From Candidatus Bathyarchaeota archaeon (GTDB taxonomy: Archaea; Thermoproteota; Bathyarchaeia; Bathyarchaeales; Bathycorpusculaceae): a DNA stretch of 24,171 nucleotides. Below, piece after piece: positions 2,973 to 11,261 of the stretch. The notes below the pieces were generated by a model. It saw nothing but the letters and a program-made list of their open reading frames with translations. It ran no database searches and was not told the DNA's origin. The translations under genes and the position numbers were made by a program. Numbering within the stretch: position 1 is the first letter of the stretch; each line of letters starts with the position of its first letter. The stretch lies in contig DAOUSM010000001.1 of NCBI GenBank assembly GCA_030627225.1, positions 1-24,171 of the forward strand. Reading direction: 5' to 3'.

Positions 2973-4802
2973 ATGTGTGGAATCTTCGGTTGCATTTTGA
3001 AGAGTGGAAACGTTGCGCCTGTAATACATGCTGCTTTAAAAAGGCTTGAATATCGCGGCTACGACTCTGTTGGAGAAGCAACCATATACAACGGTAGGCT
3101 CTACATAAAAAAGGACCAAGGAAAAATCGACGAAGTTCACAAAATCCATAACTTGGATGATTTACTTGGAAACCTCGGCATTGGACATACAAGATGGGCT
3201 ACGCATGGTGCCCCATTAGAGGTTAATGCGCACCCACATATTGATTGCAGCGGGCAAATAGCTGTTGTCCATAATGGTATTATAGAGAACTTTGCTGAGT
3301 TGAAGCTGGAGCTGGAGAACCGCGGTCACGTTTTCAGGTCCAAGACTGACACGGAAGTGATAGCCCATCTTATTGAGGAAAACTTGAAGACCAACCCTTC
3401 TCTTAGCCTCGCTGAGGCTGTGCTTGAAACTGTGAGGAGGCTTGACGGTTCATATGCGATTGCTGTGATTTCAACGAAGGAACCTGACAAGATAATATGT
3501 GCCAGATATGAAAGTCCGCTAGTTATTGGGGTGAATGAAAATGCGATTTACTGTGCTTCCGACATCCCTGCGTTTCTGCCTCTGACTAACAGAGCGGTTG
3601 TAATTGAAGACGGCGAGCTTGTTATTCTCTCACGGGAAGGCTTTGAGATTAGTAAGATTGCCGATTCAAACGTTGTGTTGCGGGAGCCCAAGCTTATTGA
3701 TTGGACATCTGAGATGGCTGTTAAGCAGGGCTATCCGCATTTTATGCTGAAGGAAATCCATGAGCAGCCAGCTTGTCTTCGAAACACGCTTAGATTGCAG
3801 GAGCATTATCTTGATTTGATGGCGACTTTTCTTGATCGTGCTCGTGAAGTCTTTCTTGTGGCTTGTGGGACTTCCTACCATGCTTGTTTGGCTGCGTCAT
3901 ATATGTTCTCCAAACTTGCTTTCTTAGCAACTTATCCAGTTATAGCTTCAGAGTTCGTTGAACAACACGGCAAATCTGTCAACATCGACAGCACAATCTT
4001 GACGGTAAGTCAATCCGGTGAAACAGCGGACACTCTAGCCGCTGTGAACTGCGCCCGTCAAAGAGCAGCGACTGTTCTTGGATTAACTAATGTCATTGGT
4101 TCGACATTAACTAGGGTTTCACGGGTTTACATTTGCCAGCAGTCCGGTCCGGAAATAGGGGTGGCGGCAACGAAAACGTTCACTTCCCAACTTTCGGTGC
4201 TGGCACAATTAGCCTTGAGGCTTGCGAAGAAAAGAGGCAAAGTTTCACAGGATGAAATGGACTTTTTAGCGGAAAAATTGGAGAAGCTTCCAGACACTGT
4301 TGAAACTATAATTCGGACACAAGAAGAAAATGTGAAGCAAATCGCGAAAAAATACAAGGATGTGAAAACATTCTTTTTCCTCGGTCGTGGAATAAGCACA
4401 GCCACAGCCTACGAGGGCAGACTGAAACTTATGGAGATAGCCTATGTGCCAGCCATAGCCTATCCAGCCGGGGAAAGCAAGCATGGACCCATAAGCCTCA
4501 TAGAGTCCGGCTTCCCTGTGGTCTTCATCTGTCCAAAGGATGAAACCCGAAAGACATTGATGGGCAACATTATGGAGATGAAAGCCAGAAATGCTTCTAT
4601 AATAGCTGTTATTGAGGAAGACGATGAAGAAGTGAAGAAACTTGCCGACGACTACATTGAAGTGCCTAAAGGCATCCCAGAAGTCTTGTCACCCATACCC
4701 TTCGTTGTTCCATTACAGGTTCTGGCATACTACATGGCTGTCGAAAGAGGACACAACCCAGACACTCCAAGAAACCTAGCGAAATCTGTTACTGTAAAAT
4801 AA
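2973..4802 (+). CDS. glmS: Glutamine-fructose-6-phosphate aminotransferase (isomerizing)
   Basis: N-terminal MCGIFG nucleophile, EYRGYDS, GHTRWATHG, HNGIIEN, SQSGETADT, GESKHGP and C-terminal PRNLAKSVTVK. Confidence 0.97.
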   Translation: MCGIFGCILKSGNVAPVIHAALKRLEYRGYDSVGEATIYNGRLYIKKDQGKIDEVHKIHNLDDLLGNLGIGHTRWATHGAPLEVNAHPHIDCSGQIAVVHNGIIENFAELKLELENRGHVFRSKTDTEVIAHLIEENLKTNPSLSLAEAVLETVRRLDGSYAIAVISTKEPDKIICARYESPLVIGVNENAIYCASDIPAFLPLTNRAVVIEDGELVILSREGFEISKIADSNVVLREPKLIDWTSEMAVKQGYPHFMLKEIHEQPACLRNTLRLQEHYLDLMATFLDRAREVFLVACGTSYHACLAASYMFSKLAFLATYPVIASEFVEQHGKSVNIDSTILTVSQSGETADTLAAVNCARQRAATVLGLTNVIGSTLTRVSRVYICQQSGPEIGVAATKTFTSQLSVLAQLALRLAKKRGKVSQDEMDFLAEKLEKLPDTVETIIRTQEENVKQIAKKYKDVKTFFFLGRGISTATAYEGRLKLMEIAYVPAIAYPAGESKHGPISLIESGFPVVFICPKDETRKTLMGNIMEMKARNASIIAVIEEDDEEVKKLADDYIEVPKGIPEVLSPIPFVVPLQVLAYYMAVERGHNPDTPRNLAKSVTVK

Positions 4803-4848
4803 TTCTCTCTCCTTATTCTACATCTTTCTTTCAAATGCGAATACGTTT

Positions 4849-4858
4849 AAAGCTTATT
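4849..4858 (+). promoter_or_regulatory. Putative BRE/TATA-like promoter element for pcm (AAAGCTTATT)
   Basis: About 20-30 nt upstream of the likely start. Similar AAAGCTT(T)AT strings precede glmS (2905) and the aminopeptidase (21977). Confidence 0.35.
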
Positions 4859-4885
4859 CCGACAATTATACATTCGGTGCTTAAT

Positions 4886-5594
4886 TTGGAAAAAAAGGAT
4901 TGGGAAAAACTCATTGAGAATCTGGTGAAAGAGGGCATTCTTCGCTCGCCGAAAGTTATTGGGGCTATGCGTTCAGTGCCTCGTGCAAATTTCCTTCCAG
5001 AAAACATGCTGTCTTACAGTGCTGTAGATACGCCGCTTCCAATAGGTTTTGGGCAGACTGTTTCAGCGCCACATAGCCTTGCTTAGATGCTAGGCTAGGC
5101 GAAACATGGTTTCAATAATGAATGAAGCCCTCCAATTGGAAGTCGGCCACAAAGTGCTTGAAGTCGGAGCTGGTTCGGGATGGCATGCCGCAACCATAGC
5201 TGAGATAGTTTCACCTAGCGACGTGCCCAGAAGTGAATGGGGCCACGTTTACACGGTGGAAATAATCCAAGGCTTGGCTGAATTTGCTAGAAGAAACATC
5301 ATGAAAGCTGGATACGGCGATCGTGTAACCATAATCTGCACAGACGGTTCCATGGGTTATTCTGAAAAGGCTCCCTATGACAGAATTCTCGTAACTGCTG
5401 CTGCACCGGACGTTCCAAAACCCTTAATCGAACAGCTAAAGCCTAACGGAATTATGCTAATCCCTGTTGGAAGCATGCACCTATTCCAAAGTCTCATGAA
5501 AATCAAGAAGGGAGCTAACGGAAAAATAAAGGAGGAAAACCTAGGCGGAGTTGCCTTCGTCCCATTAACCGGGCATTACGGTCACAGAATCTAA
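4886..5594 (+). CDS. pcm: Protein-L-isoaspartate O-methyltransferase; intron-containing gene (exon 1 about 4886-5072, exon 2 5104-5594; 225 aa after splicing)
   Basis: The first ORF carries the Pcm N-terminus ([28 protein letters not shown]). The second carries [15 protein letters not shown] (SAM motif I), [13 protein letters not shown] and [13 protein letters not shown]. Removing 5073-5103 gives CCA C|AC ATG GTT = P-H-M-V in frame. The TTG start at 4886 is my estimate; GTG at 4877 is an alternative. Confidence 0.9.
5073..5103 (+). other. 31-nt bulge-helix-bulge (archaeal tRNA-endonuclease type) mRNA intron
   Basis: Central 4-bp helix CGCC(5067-5070)/GGCG(5098-5101), 3-nt bulges ACA(5071-5073) and AAA(5102-5104), and intron stem UAGCCU(5074-5079)/AGGCUA(5092-5097). 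Cleavage after the 2nd nt of each bulge removes exactly 31 nt and restores the reading frame. Confidence 0.85.
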
Positions 5595-5609: not shown

Positions 5610-6923
5610 TTATCGGCATTCCAGCTTTTCCTTATACGCCATCAAATCCAAGAAGCCGTGTCCGCTAATGTTCATACATATTACTTTTTCTTCACCAGCT
5701 CTCTCAGCTTCTAGGGCTTTGTCGATTCCAGCACGAATGGCGTAGCTGGATTCGGGTGCAGGCAACCATCCTTCATTTTGAAGGAAGATTTTTGCAGCTT
5801 CGAAGATTGATTTTTCGTCGATGGGATAAGCTATAGCCTTCACCAAGTTATGGTGCCTCAACAAGCTTATGATAGGTGCGGCTGCATGATACCGTAAGCC
5901 GTCAGCTTTAATCGGCGGCATCTCAATCTTATGACCCAAAGTATAAATCTTTAGAAGCGGCGTGTGTTCAGCCACGTCGCAAAAGTCATATCTGTATTCT
6001 CCTTTGATAAGATTTGGTGCGGCAAGCGATTGAGCCGCTAGGAATTCGCATTCTCGTTTACCCCTCAAAACTTCGCCGATGAAAGGCAGGGCTATTCCGC
6101 CAAAGTTGGAGCCGCCACCTAGACAGCCGATGATTAAGTCTGGTTTCTCATCGATTAAGTCAAATTGTTTAATAGTTTCTAACCCTATTATTGTCTGATG
6201 CATGAGGACATGGTTCAAAACTGAGCCTAAGCAGTATACGCAACCCTTATGTGTTTTGGCGTATTCTAGTCCTTCTGAAATTGCAATACCTAGCGAACCG
6301 GAGTGATTGGGATTTTTGGAAAGGACTTCTCTGCCAATGTTGGTTTCTTTGCTAGGTGAAGAGTAAACCTTTGCTCCTAAGAGTTTCATCAGGATTCTTC
6401 TGTCAACTTTCCAGTCGTAGACGGATTTGACCCAAAAAATTACGCATTCAAGGTCTAAGAGTTTTGCAGCGTAGGCAAGCGCTGTTCCCCACTGTCCCGC
6501 ACCTGTTTCTGTGCTTAGGGTTGTTTTCCCCTCTTTCAGCGCATAGTAAGCTTGGACGACTGCGGTGTTGGTTTTATGGGAGCCTGTTGGAGACAAATCT
6601 TCGCGCTTATAGTAAAGCCTAACCCTTTTCAACCCCAAACGTTTTTCTAAGCGTTTTGCACGATAAAGCGGCCTCGGTCTACCCATGTGAATATAAAGTT
6701 CGCGAATTTCCTCGGGAATGAGAACCCAACGTTCATTCGCCATTTCTTGTTTTAAACATTCATTGATCATGGTTCTGGCTAGAAATTCCGCTCGCGGCGG
6801 TCCGGTTTCGGGTTCCTTTGGAGGAGGAAGTGGTTCAGGAAGGTCTGGCAAAATATTATACCATTTAGCGGGTAACTCCTCCACTGGCAACGTGATTTGA
6901 CTCTTCTCCATAATTGTCACCAT
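5610..6923 (-). CDS. trpB2: Tryptophan synthase beta chain, type 2 (TrpB2)
   Basis: WYNILPDLPEPLPPP N-terminus, PLP lysine in PTGSHKTNTA, TETGAGQWG, GSVLNHV, GGGSNFGG, GLRYH, PAPESSYA and NISGHGFLD. The start may be at 6911. Confidence 0.92.
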   Translation of the reverse strand: MVTIMEKSQITLPVEELPAKWYNILPDLPEPLPPPKEPETGPPRAEFLARTMINECLKQEMANERWVLIPEEIRELYIHMGRPRPLYRAKRLEKRLGLKRVRLYYKREDLSPTGSHKTNTAVVQAYYALKEGKTTLSTETGAGQWGTALAYAAKLLDLECVIFWVKSVYDWKVDRRILMKLLGAKVYSSPSKETNIGREVLSKNPNHSGSLGIAISEGLEYAKTHKGCVYCLGSVLNHVLMHQTIIGLETIKQFDLIDEKPDLIIGCLGGGSNFGGIALPFIGEVLRGKRECEFLAAQSLAAPNLIKGEYRYDFCDVAEHTPLLKIYTLGHKIEMPPIKADGLRYHAAAPIISLLRHHNLVKAIAYPIDEKSIFEAAKIFLQNEGWLPAPESSYAIRAGIDKALEAERAGEEKVICMNISGHGFLDLMAYKEKLECR

Positions 6924-6997: not shown

Positions 6998-8032
6998 CTA
7001 TCCGAACCATTTCTCTAGCGTTGTTCTCCCCTTTAACTTCTCAGCGCCTTTCCGCATCTTTTCTAAAGCTTTTCTGACACGGTCTTCTGAGAAGTCTCTT
7101 TCTCTACAGATAAAGTCTATCACACCTTCCACGTCGGGTTCTCTCCATTCTATTTCGTATCTATCTGTTACCTTTGGATGTAGAAAGATTTCCCTTATTT
7201 TTTGCGGTTCAACTGGGAACTCTGCGTTTTTTATGTGTGGTAAGGCGTTTTCTAGGCTTCCATGCTCTTTTATCAGTTTTAAGGCTGTTTTCGGTCCCAA
7301 GCCTTTTATGCCATTAGGGTTGAAGTCTGTGCCTATGAGTATGCCTATGTCGATTAATTGCTCATAGGTTATTCCGCATTCCTTTAGAACATGTTCTAGC
7401 TCAACTACTTCTGGCACAACTTCAATATAGATATTTTTTCTTGGGAGTTTTCTCCGTCCTGAAATTGTCACGTTTCTCACGAGTCTTGGAGCGCCGAAGA
7501 GGATGCTGTCATAGTCTTGGCTTGCACAGTAATCTGCATCTCCGCGCTTTACCAGATGTGCTGCTTGGGCTTCCCCCTCGCTTGGTGCCTGAACCCATGG
7601 AATCCCCATCAAATCCAAAAGCCGTTTGCTGTCTTCGGCCATGTAGTCCTTTAGGCGGGATGTTGCTTGCGCGTACATGCGGGCTTCTTCTATTTTTCCC
7701 GCCTTCAAGGCTTGCTCATACCTTACTAGGGCTTCCTCTTTGGCTTTCATGCGCCTCTTGATTTCAACTTCTTTTAATGCTGGTGGAACTCCGTCAAAAA
7801 CGTATATTGGCTTTATGCCCATTTCTACAAGGTTGCTTGTTCTGTAAAGGAGTCCGCTTAAATGGCTTGTTATTCTTCCGCTGCTATCTTTTAATGGTGT
7901 GCCGTCTGGCTGACGGATTATGGCTAAGAACTGGTATAGGGCGTTGTAAGCGTCTATAGCAATGGATTTTCCACTTAAATCCTCAAGCCTAACAGTTGTT
8001 TTCGGAACAAGGTCACGCAGGTTTACGCCCAA
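6998..8032 (-). CDS. fen: Flap endonuclease 1
   Basis: MGV start, IDAYNALYQFL, ITSHLSG, VFDG.PP.LK, APSEGEAQAA, SQDYDSILFG, GTDFNP.GIKGLGPK and a C-terminal PIP-box-like TTLEKWF. Confidence 0.97.
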   Translation of the reverse strand: MGVNLRDLVPKTTVRLEDLSGKSIAIDAYNALYQFLAIIRQPDGTPLKDSSGRITSHLSGLLYRTSNLVEMGIKPIYVFDGVPPALKEVEIKRRMKAKEEALVRYEQALKAGKIEEARMYAQATSRLKDYMAEDSKRLLDLMGIPWVQAPSEGEAQAAHLVKRGDADYCASQDYDSILFGAPRLVRNVTISGRRKLPRKNIYIEVVPEVVELEHVLKECGITYEQLIDIGILIGTDFNPNGIKGLGPKTALKLIKEHGSLENALPHIKNAEFPVEPQKIREIFLHPKVTDRYEIEWREPDVEGVIDFICRERDFSEDRVRKALEKMRKGAEKLKGRTTLEKWFG

Positions 8033-8133
8033 AACAACCCCGTTAATATAACAACAAAAGTAAAATAATAAACTTGCGAAAGTAGAGCTTAGCGTAATTT
8101 CTGTTGAAGATTGCGAAAGCTGTCTTTAAAATG

Positions 8134-8456
8134 CTATATTTCTTTTAGGACTCTGCTGTCTATCCGTTGGAAGTACGTGTTCATTTGAGAAATTAGTTCT
8201 CGCCATTCTGGATTTCGGGCGAACTCCTTGGTTTTCTCTTCATCTTTATCAGTGCTGAATAGTTTGGGTATTCAAACCATGTTTCATACGTTGGTTCACC
8301 TATCAAAGTCACGAAATGCTTCACGGATTTCCACGTTGCACCATGAGATATAAGCCATTCATCAAGTCTTTTCTGCCATTCTAAGACTTTCCTGAAGTTT
8401 TCCTTCCCTTCAGCAGTCAACTTTTCTGTGATTACAAGGTATATCATACTTCTCAT
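8134..8456 (-). pseudogene. Small dimeric alpha+beta barrel (NIPSNAP-like) gene broken by a 1-nt frameshift near 8250 (pseudogene or sequence error)
   Basis: Frame A reads ...TWFEYPNYSAL and then becomes implausible. Shifting one base at 8250 gives DKDEEKTKEFARNPEWRELISQMNTYFQRIDSRVLKEI* (TAG at 8136-8134), a natural-looking C-terminal helix and strand. The fold call is from pattern only. Confidence 0.6.
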
Positions 8457-8535
8457 CTCATCCTTTTTTGCGGCTTTTAAACATATAAAATATAAGGGAG
8501 CTTCACAATAACAGAACCATCACCGAGGAATAAAA

Positions 8536-8724
8536 ATGGCTGAAAGGACAGCAACGTTAACTTTGGTTACATGCACAAGCTGTGGTAAACCGATACCGCC
8601 AGGAACAGAGGCTACAAAATTCCTTTGTCCAAACTGCGGAGAAATCCTGATAAGGCGATGTGCAAAGTGCAGAAAGTTTGGACGCCTATATAAGTGTCCG
8701 AAATGCGGTTTTGCTGGACCATAA
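8536..8724 (+). CDS. Zn-ribbon protein (DUF1610-like, conserved upstream of EF-1beta)
   Basis: CTSC, CPNCG, RCAKCR and [11 protein letters not shown]; directly upstream of EF-1beta. Confidence 0.88.
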
Positions 8725-8745
8725 AATGCAAAAGGAGGGTGAAAA

Positions 8746-9021
8746 ATGGGTAGTGTTGTAATTTCCTACAAAATCTTCCCAATAGACATAAAGGTTGACT
8801 TTAATGAATTGAGAAGGAAGATTGAAGATTGCTTACCTGAGTTTGCCTCGATTTACGGTTTTGGAGAAGAACCAATAGCTTATGGCTTAAACGCCTTAAT
8901 TGCCCACATAAAAATTCCAGAGGACAAATCAGGCGTGCTTGATGAGCTTGAGAAGAAATTTGAGGAGATAAGCGAAATAAGCCAAGTTCAACCGGTTATG
9001 GTGCGTAAAACGAGCAGATAG
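8746..9021 (+). CDS. ef1b: Translation elongation factor 1-beta
   Basis: KIFPIDIKVD, EEPIAYGLNALIAHI, LDELEKKF; 91 aa, the typical aEF-1beta size. Confidence 0.93.
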   Translation: MGSVVISYKIFPIDIKVDFNELRRKIEDCLPEFASIYGFGEEPIAYGLNALIAHIKIPEDKSGVLDELEKKFEEISEISQVQPVMVRKTSR

Positions 9022-9030
9022 CCTTAAACA

Positions 9031-9038
9031 TTTATATA
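9031..9038 (+). promoter_or_regulatory. TATA box upstream of cdc48
   Basis: TTTATATA preceded by an A-rich BRE-like TTAAACA, about 50 nt upstream of the TTG start. Confidence 0.55.
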
Positions 9039-9089
9039 GGAATGAAACTCTGTTTCGGACAGTACAGCATAATTATAGAAGGGTTCTAA

Positions 9090-11261
9090 TTGGTTGAAGT
9101 GCAATTACGTGTCGGTGATGCAAGACAGCGGGATGTTGGAAGGGGCATAGCCCGCATAGACCAGAGAACAATGCGAAAGCTAGGCATATCAGCAGGCGAC
9201 GTAGTAGAAATAGTTGGCAAAAGAACAACATCAGCCATAGCTTGGCCAGCCTACAGTGAAGACCAAAACCGAGAAATAATACGCATAGACGGTTTCACCC
9301 GCAAAAACGCAGGAGTAGCGATAAACGAATATGTTGTTGTAAGACCAGCAAAAGTCAAAAACGCCTTAAACGTCACACTTGCACCAGTGGATATGAGACT
9401 GAATGTTGACGAAGACTTCATGAACTTTGTTAAAAACCGCCTAATGGAGAGAACCTTGATTGAAGGTGACACAACGCTTGTTATGATGCTGGGTCATGCC
9501 ATACCCTTCACCGTGACAAAGACACGGCCACATGGCATAGTGAAAGTTACTCCGGAAACGAGACTGACAATTCTAAATGAGCCAGCACCTGAGGGAAGAG
9601 GACTGCCAAGAACAACATACGAAGACATCGGAGGACTACGTGAGGAAATGCAAAGAGTGAGGGAAATGGTTGAGCTTCCACTAAGGCATCCTGAACTGTT
9701 TCAAAGGCTGGGAATAGACCCGCCTAAAGGGGTGCTGCTTCATGGTTTTCCTGGCTGCGGTAAAACCCTTTTGGCTAGGGCTGTGGCAAACGAGTCGGAA
9801 GCAAACTTCTTCTCAATAAACGGACCAGAAATAATGAGCAAGTTCTACGGAGAATCAGAAGCAAGACTTCGGGAAATTTTCCAGCAAGCTCAGCAGAACT
9901 CCCCAAGCATAATATTCATCGACGAACTAGACGCAATAGCGCCTAAACGTGAAGAAGTCACGGGCGAAGTCGAAAGACGTGTAGTTGCACAGCTCTTGGC
10001 ATTAATGGACGGCTTATCTGGAAGGGGAAACGTTATAGTAATAGGGGCCACAAACAGGCCAGGCGCCCTTGACCCGGCCCTCCGCAGACCGGGCAGATTC
10101 GACAGAGAAATTGAGATAGGCGTTCCAGACAAGCAAGGAAGATACGAAATACTACAAATCCATACTCGCGGAATGCCATTGGCAGAAGATGTTGACCTTA
10201 AAAAGTTGTCTGAAATAACTCATGGGTACACTGGTGCAGACCTTGCCGCCTTATGCAGGGAAACAGCAATGAAAGCCCTACGCAGGTATCTGCCACAAAT
10301 AAACCTGGAAGAGGAACGCATACCACCAAGCGTGCTGGAGAAAATGGAAGTGAAAATGGATGACTTCATCAACGCTTACAAGGAGATAACGCCCACCGCC
10401 ATGCGAGAAGTATACATAGAAGTGCCCACAGTCCACTGGGACGCCATCGGCGGACTGGAAGAAGTTAAACAAGAGCTTAAAGAAGCCGTGGAATGGCCGC
10501 TAAAAAATCCTGAAATCTTTAAGAGGCTTGGGATAAATCCACCTAGAGGAATACTGCTTTATGGCCCTCCTGGATGTGGTAAAACCCTTTTGGCCAGAGC
10601 CGTTGCAACAGAGAGCGAAGCCAACTTCATAACGATTAAAGGTCCAGAAGTCTTCTCAAAATGGGTCGGCGAATCTGAGAAGGCAATAAGAGAGGTCTTC
10701 AGAAAAGCCAGAATGGCAGCTCCAGCAGTAATATTTTTCGATGAAATCGACTCGCTTGCGCCCAGAAGAGGTCTAGGTTTCGCAGACAGCGGAGTAACGG
10801 AACGAGTCATCAGCCAGCTTTTAACAGAGATGGATGGAATCGTAACCTTAGAAGACATAGTTATCATGGCCGCCACAAACAGACCAGATATTGTGGACCC
10901 AGCAGTGCTTCGCCCAGGAAGATTTGACAGGCTGATATATGTGCCTTCACCCGATGAGAAAAGCCGACTTCAAATATTCAAAATATACACTGAAACTATG
11001 CCGTTGGCAAAGGATGTAAACCTAGAACATTTAGCCTCTATAACCCAGAATTACTCCGGCGCAGACATAGAAGCCCTTTGCAGAGAAGCCGCCATGCATG
11101 CTCTGAGAAGAGATGTAAATGCTAAAGAAGTCACGAAGGAGGATTTCCAAGAAGCAATGAAGATGATTGGGCCTTCAGTCACGCCGGACATGGAGAAATG
11201 GTATAAAAGCTTTATCCGGCAAATTAGGCAAGTGCAGAAGCCAGCAACACCAGTTGCTTAG
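9090..11261 (+). CDS. cdc48: Cdc48/p97/VAT-family AAA+ ATPase
   Basis: N-domain [10 protein letters not shown], two AAA modules (GFPGCGKT / IFIDELD and GPPGCGKT / IFFDEID), and RRPGRFDR / LRPGRFDR arginine fingers. Confidence 0.97.

Follow-up and report, generated by a model that had tools for sequence, protein, structure and literature searches.

How a complete protein-L-isoaspartate O-methyltransferase (PIMT) could be made from a pcm gene that is broken inside the conserved SAPHMV motif is the question raised by the archaeal locus analyzed here. The locus lies in a stretch of 24,171 nucleotides (hereafter, the window), which represents one contig (C136) of a 1.06-Mb MAG that comprises 193 contigs and is 82.6% complete. 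Every record among the nearest relatives bears the label Candidatus Bathyarchaeota or Bathyarchaeia. Between glmS (positions 2973–4802) and the gene of a PLP-dependent enzyme (5610–6923, minus strand), the ORF list contains two ORFs of the same strand, located at 4835–5086 (ORF1) and 5106–5594 (ORF2). All elements of the pcm locus described below are on the plus strand.

According to the comparison with the Pfam PCMT profile (PF01135), ORF1 corresponds to profile positions 4–59 and ORF2 to positions 61–208, in agreement with the initial annotation, which had placed the split of pcm inside the conserved motif. Alignment with the PIMT structure of Pyrococcus furiosus (PDB 1jg1) showed the same relation, ORF1 covering residues 19–77 and ORF2 residues 79–227. 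Since the matches to both the profile and the structure adjoin, the ORF pair is, judged by these alignments, one pcm gene short of exactly one residue, namely, His in the motif SAPHMV. The gene is broken at this point by 31 nt (5073–5103), and the unspliced frame is closed by an in-frame TAG at 5084–5086. On re-reading, the coordinates and sequences given previously for the insert, its bulges and stems and the TAG were all correct.

Excision of positions 5073–5103 would leave an exon 1 at 4835–5072, ending at C5072, the first base of the His codon, and an exon 2 at 5104–5594, where AC completes this codon and the frame continues as MVSIMNE... to the stop codon. The predicted exon junction, ...GCGCCAC joined to ACAUGGUU, reads GCG CCA C|AC AUG GUU, i.e., Ala-Pro-His-Met-Val. 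As for the 5′ end of the gene, the pcm mRNA may be leaderless, starting well 3′ of ATG 4835, and the true start codon is likely GTG 4877 or TTG 4886. The TTG is a plausible start, as the similarity to relatives and to solved structures sets in close to it; in relatives, the homology starts at about residue 15–18. The length of 225 aa proposed earlier for the spliced product holds for a start at TTG 4886 and fails for ATG 4835, from which the product would have 242 aa. In addition, a TATA-like TTTAAA was noted at 4846–4851, approximately 25–35 nt upstream of GTG 4877 and TTG 4886.

The source genome (82.6% complete) yielded no further copy of pcm. A search of this genome for other copies of the 31-nt insert, allowing up to 5 mismatches, likewise gave none, and a mobile or repeated element was rejected because the insert is single-copy at this threshold. 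Neither Rfam nor a tRNA scan gave a match in the window. In the source genome, the unspliced ORF1 still reads the His (CAU) and ORF2 begins at the motif Met, so this sequence taken alone leaves two separate polypeptides possible.

The reading that we prefer, at a probability of roughly 87%, is that the 31 nt at 5073–5103 are an archaeal bulge-helix-bulge (BHB) intron of the pcm pre-mRNA. The enzymes of tRNA splicing very probably cut it from the message, since more than 100 related genomes keep the same shape at the same codon. In archaeal BHB motifs, the cut falls between bases 2 and 3 of the bulge (PMC2738675); the same paper cites Marck and Grosjean 2003 for the rule on BHB introns of archaeal tRNA and rRNA.

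At the pcm insert, two 3-nt bulges lie on opposite strands 4 bp apart, and an inner helix closes the 5′ bulge. The exon strand of the central 4-bp helix, CGCC (5067–5070), consists of positions 2–3 of the Ala codon and positions 1–2 of the Pro codon and pairs with the intron strand GGCG (5098–5101). The 5′ bulge is ACA (5071–5073), with the predicted cut after C5072, and the 3′ bulge is AAA (5102–5104), with the predicted cut after A5103. The inner stem (h′) of 6 bp is formed by UAGCCU (5074–5079) and AGGCUA (5092–5097), which are separated by a 12-nt loop region. Applied without adjustment, the cut rule yields Pro-His-Met-Val, as had been proposed and is confirmed here.

The outer flanking helix (h) that the strict hBHBh′ form includes is all but missing from pcm, where the sole conserved outer exon–exon pair is G5066–C5105; the positions beside it are mismatched and, on inspection of the alignment, exhibit neither constraint nor covariation. 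With an outer helix of a single G-C pair, the pcm motif is best classed from its sequence as a relaxed BHB and not as a full hBHBh′, and the 3′ cut site would lie in a relaxed context, so that processing would need a permissive endonuclease. The original statement that geometry, frame and motif all agree is thus borne out for the bulges, the central helix and the inner stem, but not for the outer helix, of which hardly anything remains. A 7-bp outer helix in the minimum-energy fold (5055–5061/5106–5112) was rejected as not conserved, its third-codon positions varying freely among relatives. The same fold puts the 3′ site of the intron in a 5×4 internal loop. With its 76-nt context, the insert gives a fold of −21 kcal/mol (z = −1.16), which is attained by 25 of 200 shuffled sequences. 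Folding energy by itself is not above chance here, and the significance of the structure comes from the comparison with relatives.

For this comparison, pcm loci were gathered from 40 relatives and 80 public contigs, which gave 98 distinct loci. The alignment of orthologs, suggested in the initial annotation as a check, spoke for an intron: an insert of 28–40 nt occupies the same site in 83/98 loci, whereas the other 15 have an uninterrupted His codon (CAC or CAT) and thus lack the insert precisely. In all 83 carriers, the 4-bp helix is paired, both bulges are 3 nt long and the closing pair G5066–C5105 is present as G-C; cutting after base 2 of each bulge restores SAPHM(V/I) in every one of them. 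The first four pairs of the inner stem are formed in 82–83 of the 83 loci. The 3′ bulge has the form ANA throughout. Its middle base may be A, G, U or C, a variability that is expected because this base is removed by splicing, and its third base, which becomes position 2 of the His codon, is always A.

When the named structure was placed on a MAFFT alignment, 96.7% of the cells were paired, and sliding one partner by 1–3 columns lowered the pairing to 12–43%. Compensatory double changes were detected in 7 of the 11 pairs, including all 6 pairs of the inner stem, and none of 500 shuffles matched the observed covariation values. The central helix is 100% paired; 82 loci have CGCC/GGCG, and a single locus (L081) has CACC/GGUG. 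The latter version was found again in two families (f10 and f46), and two genomes (G040 and G477) have G-U intermediates.

The exon side of the structure is visible in codon choice as well. The Ala codon is GCG in 82 of the 83 carriers, the lone GCA being offset by GGUG, as opposed to 4 of the 15 intronless genes. The third base of the Pro codon, which is the first base of the 5′ bulge, is A in 81/83 carriers, and all 83 have C as the third base of the His codon, the partner of G5066. Judged by these counts, which are not phylogenetically independent across the 83 carriers and 15 intronless genes, the synonymous sites included in the RNA structure are constrained in carriers only. In addition, the canonical cut is the sole way in which the His is regained in locus L026 and in 32 class-level genomes; in the latter, the codon after Pro, if left unspliced, is CUC, CUU, CAG, CAA, CGG or CGC, encoding Leu, Gln or Arg.

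These observations bear most directly on the possibility that pcm is a split gene, in which an N-terminal fragment of about 66–83 aa and a 162-aa C-terminal fragment starting from the motif Met would form an active two-piece methyltransferase, with the hairpin serving as a mere spacer between the two genes or coupling their translation. Two active pieces would not predict that the Ala-Pro codons pair with GGCG, that the bulges are fixed at 3 nt in 83/83 loci or that CGCC/GGCG is replaced by CACC/GGUG. It is true that ...SAPH is still encoded in ORF1 ahead of the stop and that ORF2 opens exactly on the conserved Met, and that AGGCGA 5′ of this ATG is loosely similar to a Shine-Dalgarno sequence, SD-like tetramers being present upstream of about a third of the long ORFs of the genome. 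The invariant His, however, would be lost without splicing in the 32 class-level genomes mentioned above. Moreover, 39 of the 83 inserts contain no stop codon, and ORF1 would there enter exon 2 out of frame, while intronless relatives code exactly for the fused protein. Production of the enzyme as two polypeptides is consequently regarded as quite improbable.

Selection on the coding parts was estimated from the spliced sequences of the carriers. The dN/dS ratio was 0.10 for exon 1, 0.06 (0.058) for exon 2 and about 0.07 overall, at saturating synonymous divergence (dS > 1); the maximal values were 0.12 for the whole spliced CDS and 0.29 in pairwise comparison of the short exon 1 alone. No extra stops and no further indels were found in the 83 spliced CDSs. 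These ratios indicate that both pcm exons are under purifying selection, which argues strongly against a pseudogene, i.e., a pcm inactivated by the insertion and now decaying. A stop and a frameshift are indeed present in pcm, and annotation pipelines would deem such a gene broken. The decaying, unstructured insertions in relatives that were named at the outset as the sign of a pseudogene proved to be the opposite, as the insert is structured in 83/83 carriers, covaries, and persists across several families and outside the class. As already noted, the source genome yielded no second copy that could stand in for an inactive one. Decay of the gene is very unlikely on this evidence.

Skipping of the 31 nt by the ribosome itself, either by programmed bypassing of the T4 gene 60 type or by frameshifts, is just as unlikely. 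The locus has a superficial similarity to gene 60 in the stem-loop in the gap and the stop shortly past the take-off region; however, no matched take-off and landing codons keep the frame of exon 2, and the CAU triplets at 5072 and 5105 would land out of frame. The length of the gap ranges between 28 and 40 nt, and its first codon differs among lineages, the conserved feature being the BHB geometry and not codon identity. Lastly, an assembly or sequencing artefact, or strain-specific junk inserted in a MAG, could be imagined for a source genome fragmented into 193 contigs, but its probability is negligible given that assemblies made independently, in numerous studies and from numerous habitats, have different inserts at the same site with the structure kept.

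The preferred reading, excision of the insert as a BHB intron, presupposes the tRNA-splicing enzymes, and the genes of the splicing endonuclease and RNA ligase were found in the source genome as two EndA paralogues, RtcB and archease. The EndA paralogue encoded by contig C94 (526–1083, minus strand of locus L112) is closest to crenarchaeal catalytic subunits (2cv8, 3p1z_B and 2zyz_B) and keeps the His of GPGIEHAPY. For the other paralogue, on contig C130, the best alignment was with the enzyme of M. jannaschii, and Ala stands in place of the catalytic His. This His-less EndA (PF01974 match at 7734–7988, minus strand; gene at 1471–2040 of locus L113, minus strand) adjoins a histidyl-tRNA-synthetase-like ORF, and its contig also carries the genes of archease (1671–2087) and RtcB (3837–5147), both on the plus strand. 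The two EndA sequences suggest a heteromer of a catalytic and a structural subunit. The relaxed motif has been assigned to hetero-oligomeric EndA, which has been linked to cleavage of such motifs in non-tRNA contexts (PMC2738675), and we infer that the host EndA would be permissive for the relaxed motif of pcm. Four intron-bearing tRNAs, with introns of 17–28 nt, were predicted in the genome by ARAGORN.

In the mechanism proposed here, the CGCC of the Ala-Pro codons in the transcript would form base pairs with GGCG from the intron's 3′ end; the intron hairpin would stack on this helix, leaving one 3-nt bulge on each strand at a distance of 4 bp. A two-subunit endonuclease, composed of the crenarchaeal-type catalytic EndA and its His-less paralogue, would cut at C5072|A5073 and A5103|A5104. 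RtcB, aided by archease, would join the exons and probably circularise the intron. The joined mRNA would read ...SAP-H-MV... and give one full-length protein-L-isoaspartate O-methyltransferase. The original reading as a BHB pre-mRNA intron is supported by conservation, covariation, selection, precise absences, the machinery and the cbf5 intron described below; the cleavage and ligation of the pcm transcript, and the enzymes responsible, we infer from the same genomic data.

A BHB intron was also found in cbf5 of the same genome. It is 22 nt long (contig C67, positions 2058–2079; positions 1366–1387 of locus L115), joins ...GHGGTL to DPHVTGVLP, sits in phase 1 of the codon of the catalytic Asp and has an outer helix of 4 bp. 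In about 27 of 35 relatives, cbf5 has the same closed frame; introns of 18–31 nt are present in the loci of 11 sampled relatives, with covariation of CUCU/AGAG to CCCU/AGGG. By its sequence, this lineage has the cbf5 intron where it was reported in Crenarchaeota, and the covariation is of the same type. As a separate observation, the cbf5 match in one genome of the same order (G032, contig C66, 1837–4209) consists of two pieces about 1.5 kb apart in a reported 873-aa frame, which would fit a large in-frame insertion, possibly an intein, better than a mini-intron.

The 1.06-Mb genome was further scanned for strict BHB geometry joining two long open frames. The scan gave 509 raw and 44 filtered candidates, and only pcm and cbf5 were convincing; relaxed motifs would escape such a scan, and the homology check was limited to part of the candidates. 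Candidates C22, C6, C134, C84 and C181 were rejected because they look like ordinary gene–gene junctions, having a nearby start codon or a downstream part that reads as the start of a separate protein; C84 and C181 were judged by their junction peptides or insert. The start codon near the C6 candidate is preceded by a ribosome-binding site, and the insert of the C181 candidate has a promoter-like AT-rich stretch. Two more candidates (C68 and C152) were rejected since their upstream peptides are implausible.

As for the distribution of the pcm intron, a strict pattern matched in 89 of 401 sampled Bathyarchaeia genomes, and the reversed control gave one match. The matches belong mainly to the order of the window's source, namely, to families f1 (41/103 genomes), f11 (23/25) and f7 (11/18), and a few well-folded matches were detected in other orders (genomes G088, G133, G239 and G325). 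With a looser pattern, 300 genomes of the phylum were searched, and two families outside the class were found to have the intron, f46 in 6/6 and f57 in 3/3 genomes; approximately nine unstructured matches were also obtained, which equals the control rate. In a quick tree of pcm proteins, poorly resolved and unrooted, intronless genes are nested among carriers, and a minimum of 9 changes is needed, the starred branches forcing at least two.

The simplest reading of this pattern would be an old intron with repeated precise losses. A bolder proposal is that the pcm intron is ancient, vertically inherited and selectively kept, that it is older than the separation between Bathyarchaeia and two or more other Thermoproteota families, that several precise losses followed, and that it acts as a PIMT checkpoint; we consider this conceivable, though doubtful. 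If it were true, PIMT production would depend on how much tRNA-splicing capacity is available and might be adjusted through it, and, together with cbf5, messenger BHB splicing would be a routine level of gene expression in Thermoproteota instead of an oddity confined to one gene.

Within family f1, to which the source of the window belongs, the genus with the best sampling (g17; 40 genomes of 1.5–3.1 Mb) almost never matched the intron pattern. In a genome of this genus reported as 100% complete (G016), a protein search found no close pcm homologue (best E = 2.3e-4). The whole pcm gene may have been lost in this genus.

Among known systems, the pcm element is most similar to the cbf5 pre-mRNA intron of Crenarchaeota, on which earlier work was reportedly done by Watanabe in 2002 and Yoshinari in 2006. 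Splicing of the crenarchaeal cbf5 intron was shown by cDNA and in vitro cleavage. According to Yokobori et al. (2009; PMC2738675), introns of further protein genes had been predicted, but confirmation was lacking. Both the cbf5 and pcm elements are short introns of a coding sequence with BHB-type sites cut, or predicted to be cut, between bulge bases 2 and 3, and both lie in phase 1, interrupting the codon of an active-site residue that is invariant, namely, Asp for cbf5 and His for pcm. They further share a motif that is often relaxed, a host with hetero-oligomeric EndA and a patchy distribution with precise losses. The differences concern the host gene, since pcm encodes a SAM-dependent protein-repair methyltransferase and cbf5 a pseudouridine synthase, and the lineage, which for pcm comprises Bathyarchaeia and two other Thermoproteota families. 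Moreover, the outer helix is 1 bp in pcm versus 4 bp in cbf5 of the same genome, and splicing of cbf5 has been demonstrated experimentally, whereas that of pcm is predicted. Because its host gene is pcm (PF01135) and cbf5 has a separate intron of its own, the pcm intron appears to be the same kind of element as the cbf5 intron, not a member of the same family.

In Haloferax volcanii, the 5′-UTR of HVO_1309 contains a BHB intron processed by the tRNA splicing endonuclease (PMC7714728; PMC10485636). The similarity to pcm is that an mRNA is processed at a BHB motif by this endonuclease; in HVO_1309, however, the intron lies in the untranslated leader and not in the reading frame, its removal changes expression and not protein sequence, and the host is a euryarchaeon with homodimeric EndA. 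BHB introns of tRNA and rRNA have the same structural signal, presumably the same enzymes and, in the tRNAs of the source genome, a similar length (17–28 nt), but in pcm the host RNA is a messenger, in which one helix strand made of codons constrains synonymous sites. In eukaryotes, HAC1/XBP1 mRNA is spliced by IRE1 and either tRNA ligase or RtcB, with ligation by RtcB in metazoans, and is regulated by stress. That system also represents splicing of mRNA by protein enzymes without the spliceosome, where removal of a short intron changes the frame, whereas its endonuclease, IRE1, and its RNA motif are unlike those of the EndA/BHB system.

Full-text literature searches found no report of a pcm intron. 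In the literature searched, cbf5 was the only coding-region case of a BHB intron, HVO_1309 being the 5′-UTR case (PMC7714728; PMC10485636). A second coding gene after cbf5 would widen the role of the tRNA-splicing machinery in archaeal mRNA maturation, and for pcm the evidence includes more than 100 carriers, clear covariation, and a phase and active-site placement as in cbf5. The pcm intron would also offer a compact substrate for the recognition of relaxed motifs by heteromeric EndA, and it bears on the origin of mRNA splicing by protein enzymes, as seen in HAC1/XBP1 with RtcB. There is a consequence for annotation as well. Most carrier MAGs have pcm annotated in two fragments or as a pseudogene, so that protein repair would be wrongly scored as missing.

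Two further observations were made in the window. A region of about 1 kb (8033–9089), located between a FEN1-like gene (6998–8032, minus strand) and a CDC48-like gene (9090–11261), contains no ORF of at least 120 aa, no tRNA and no Rfam match. In addition, two adjoining genes at 653–2783 each match the MetE catalytic domain (Meth_synt_2), and they look more like the pair of short MetE-like genes of archaea than like a single full-length MetE.
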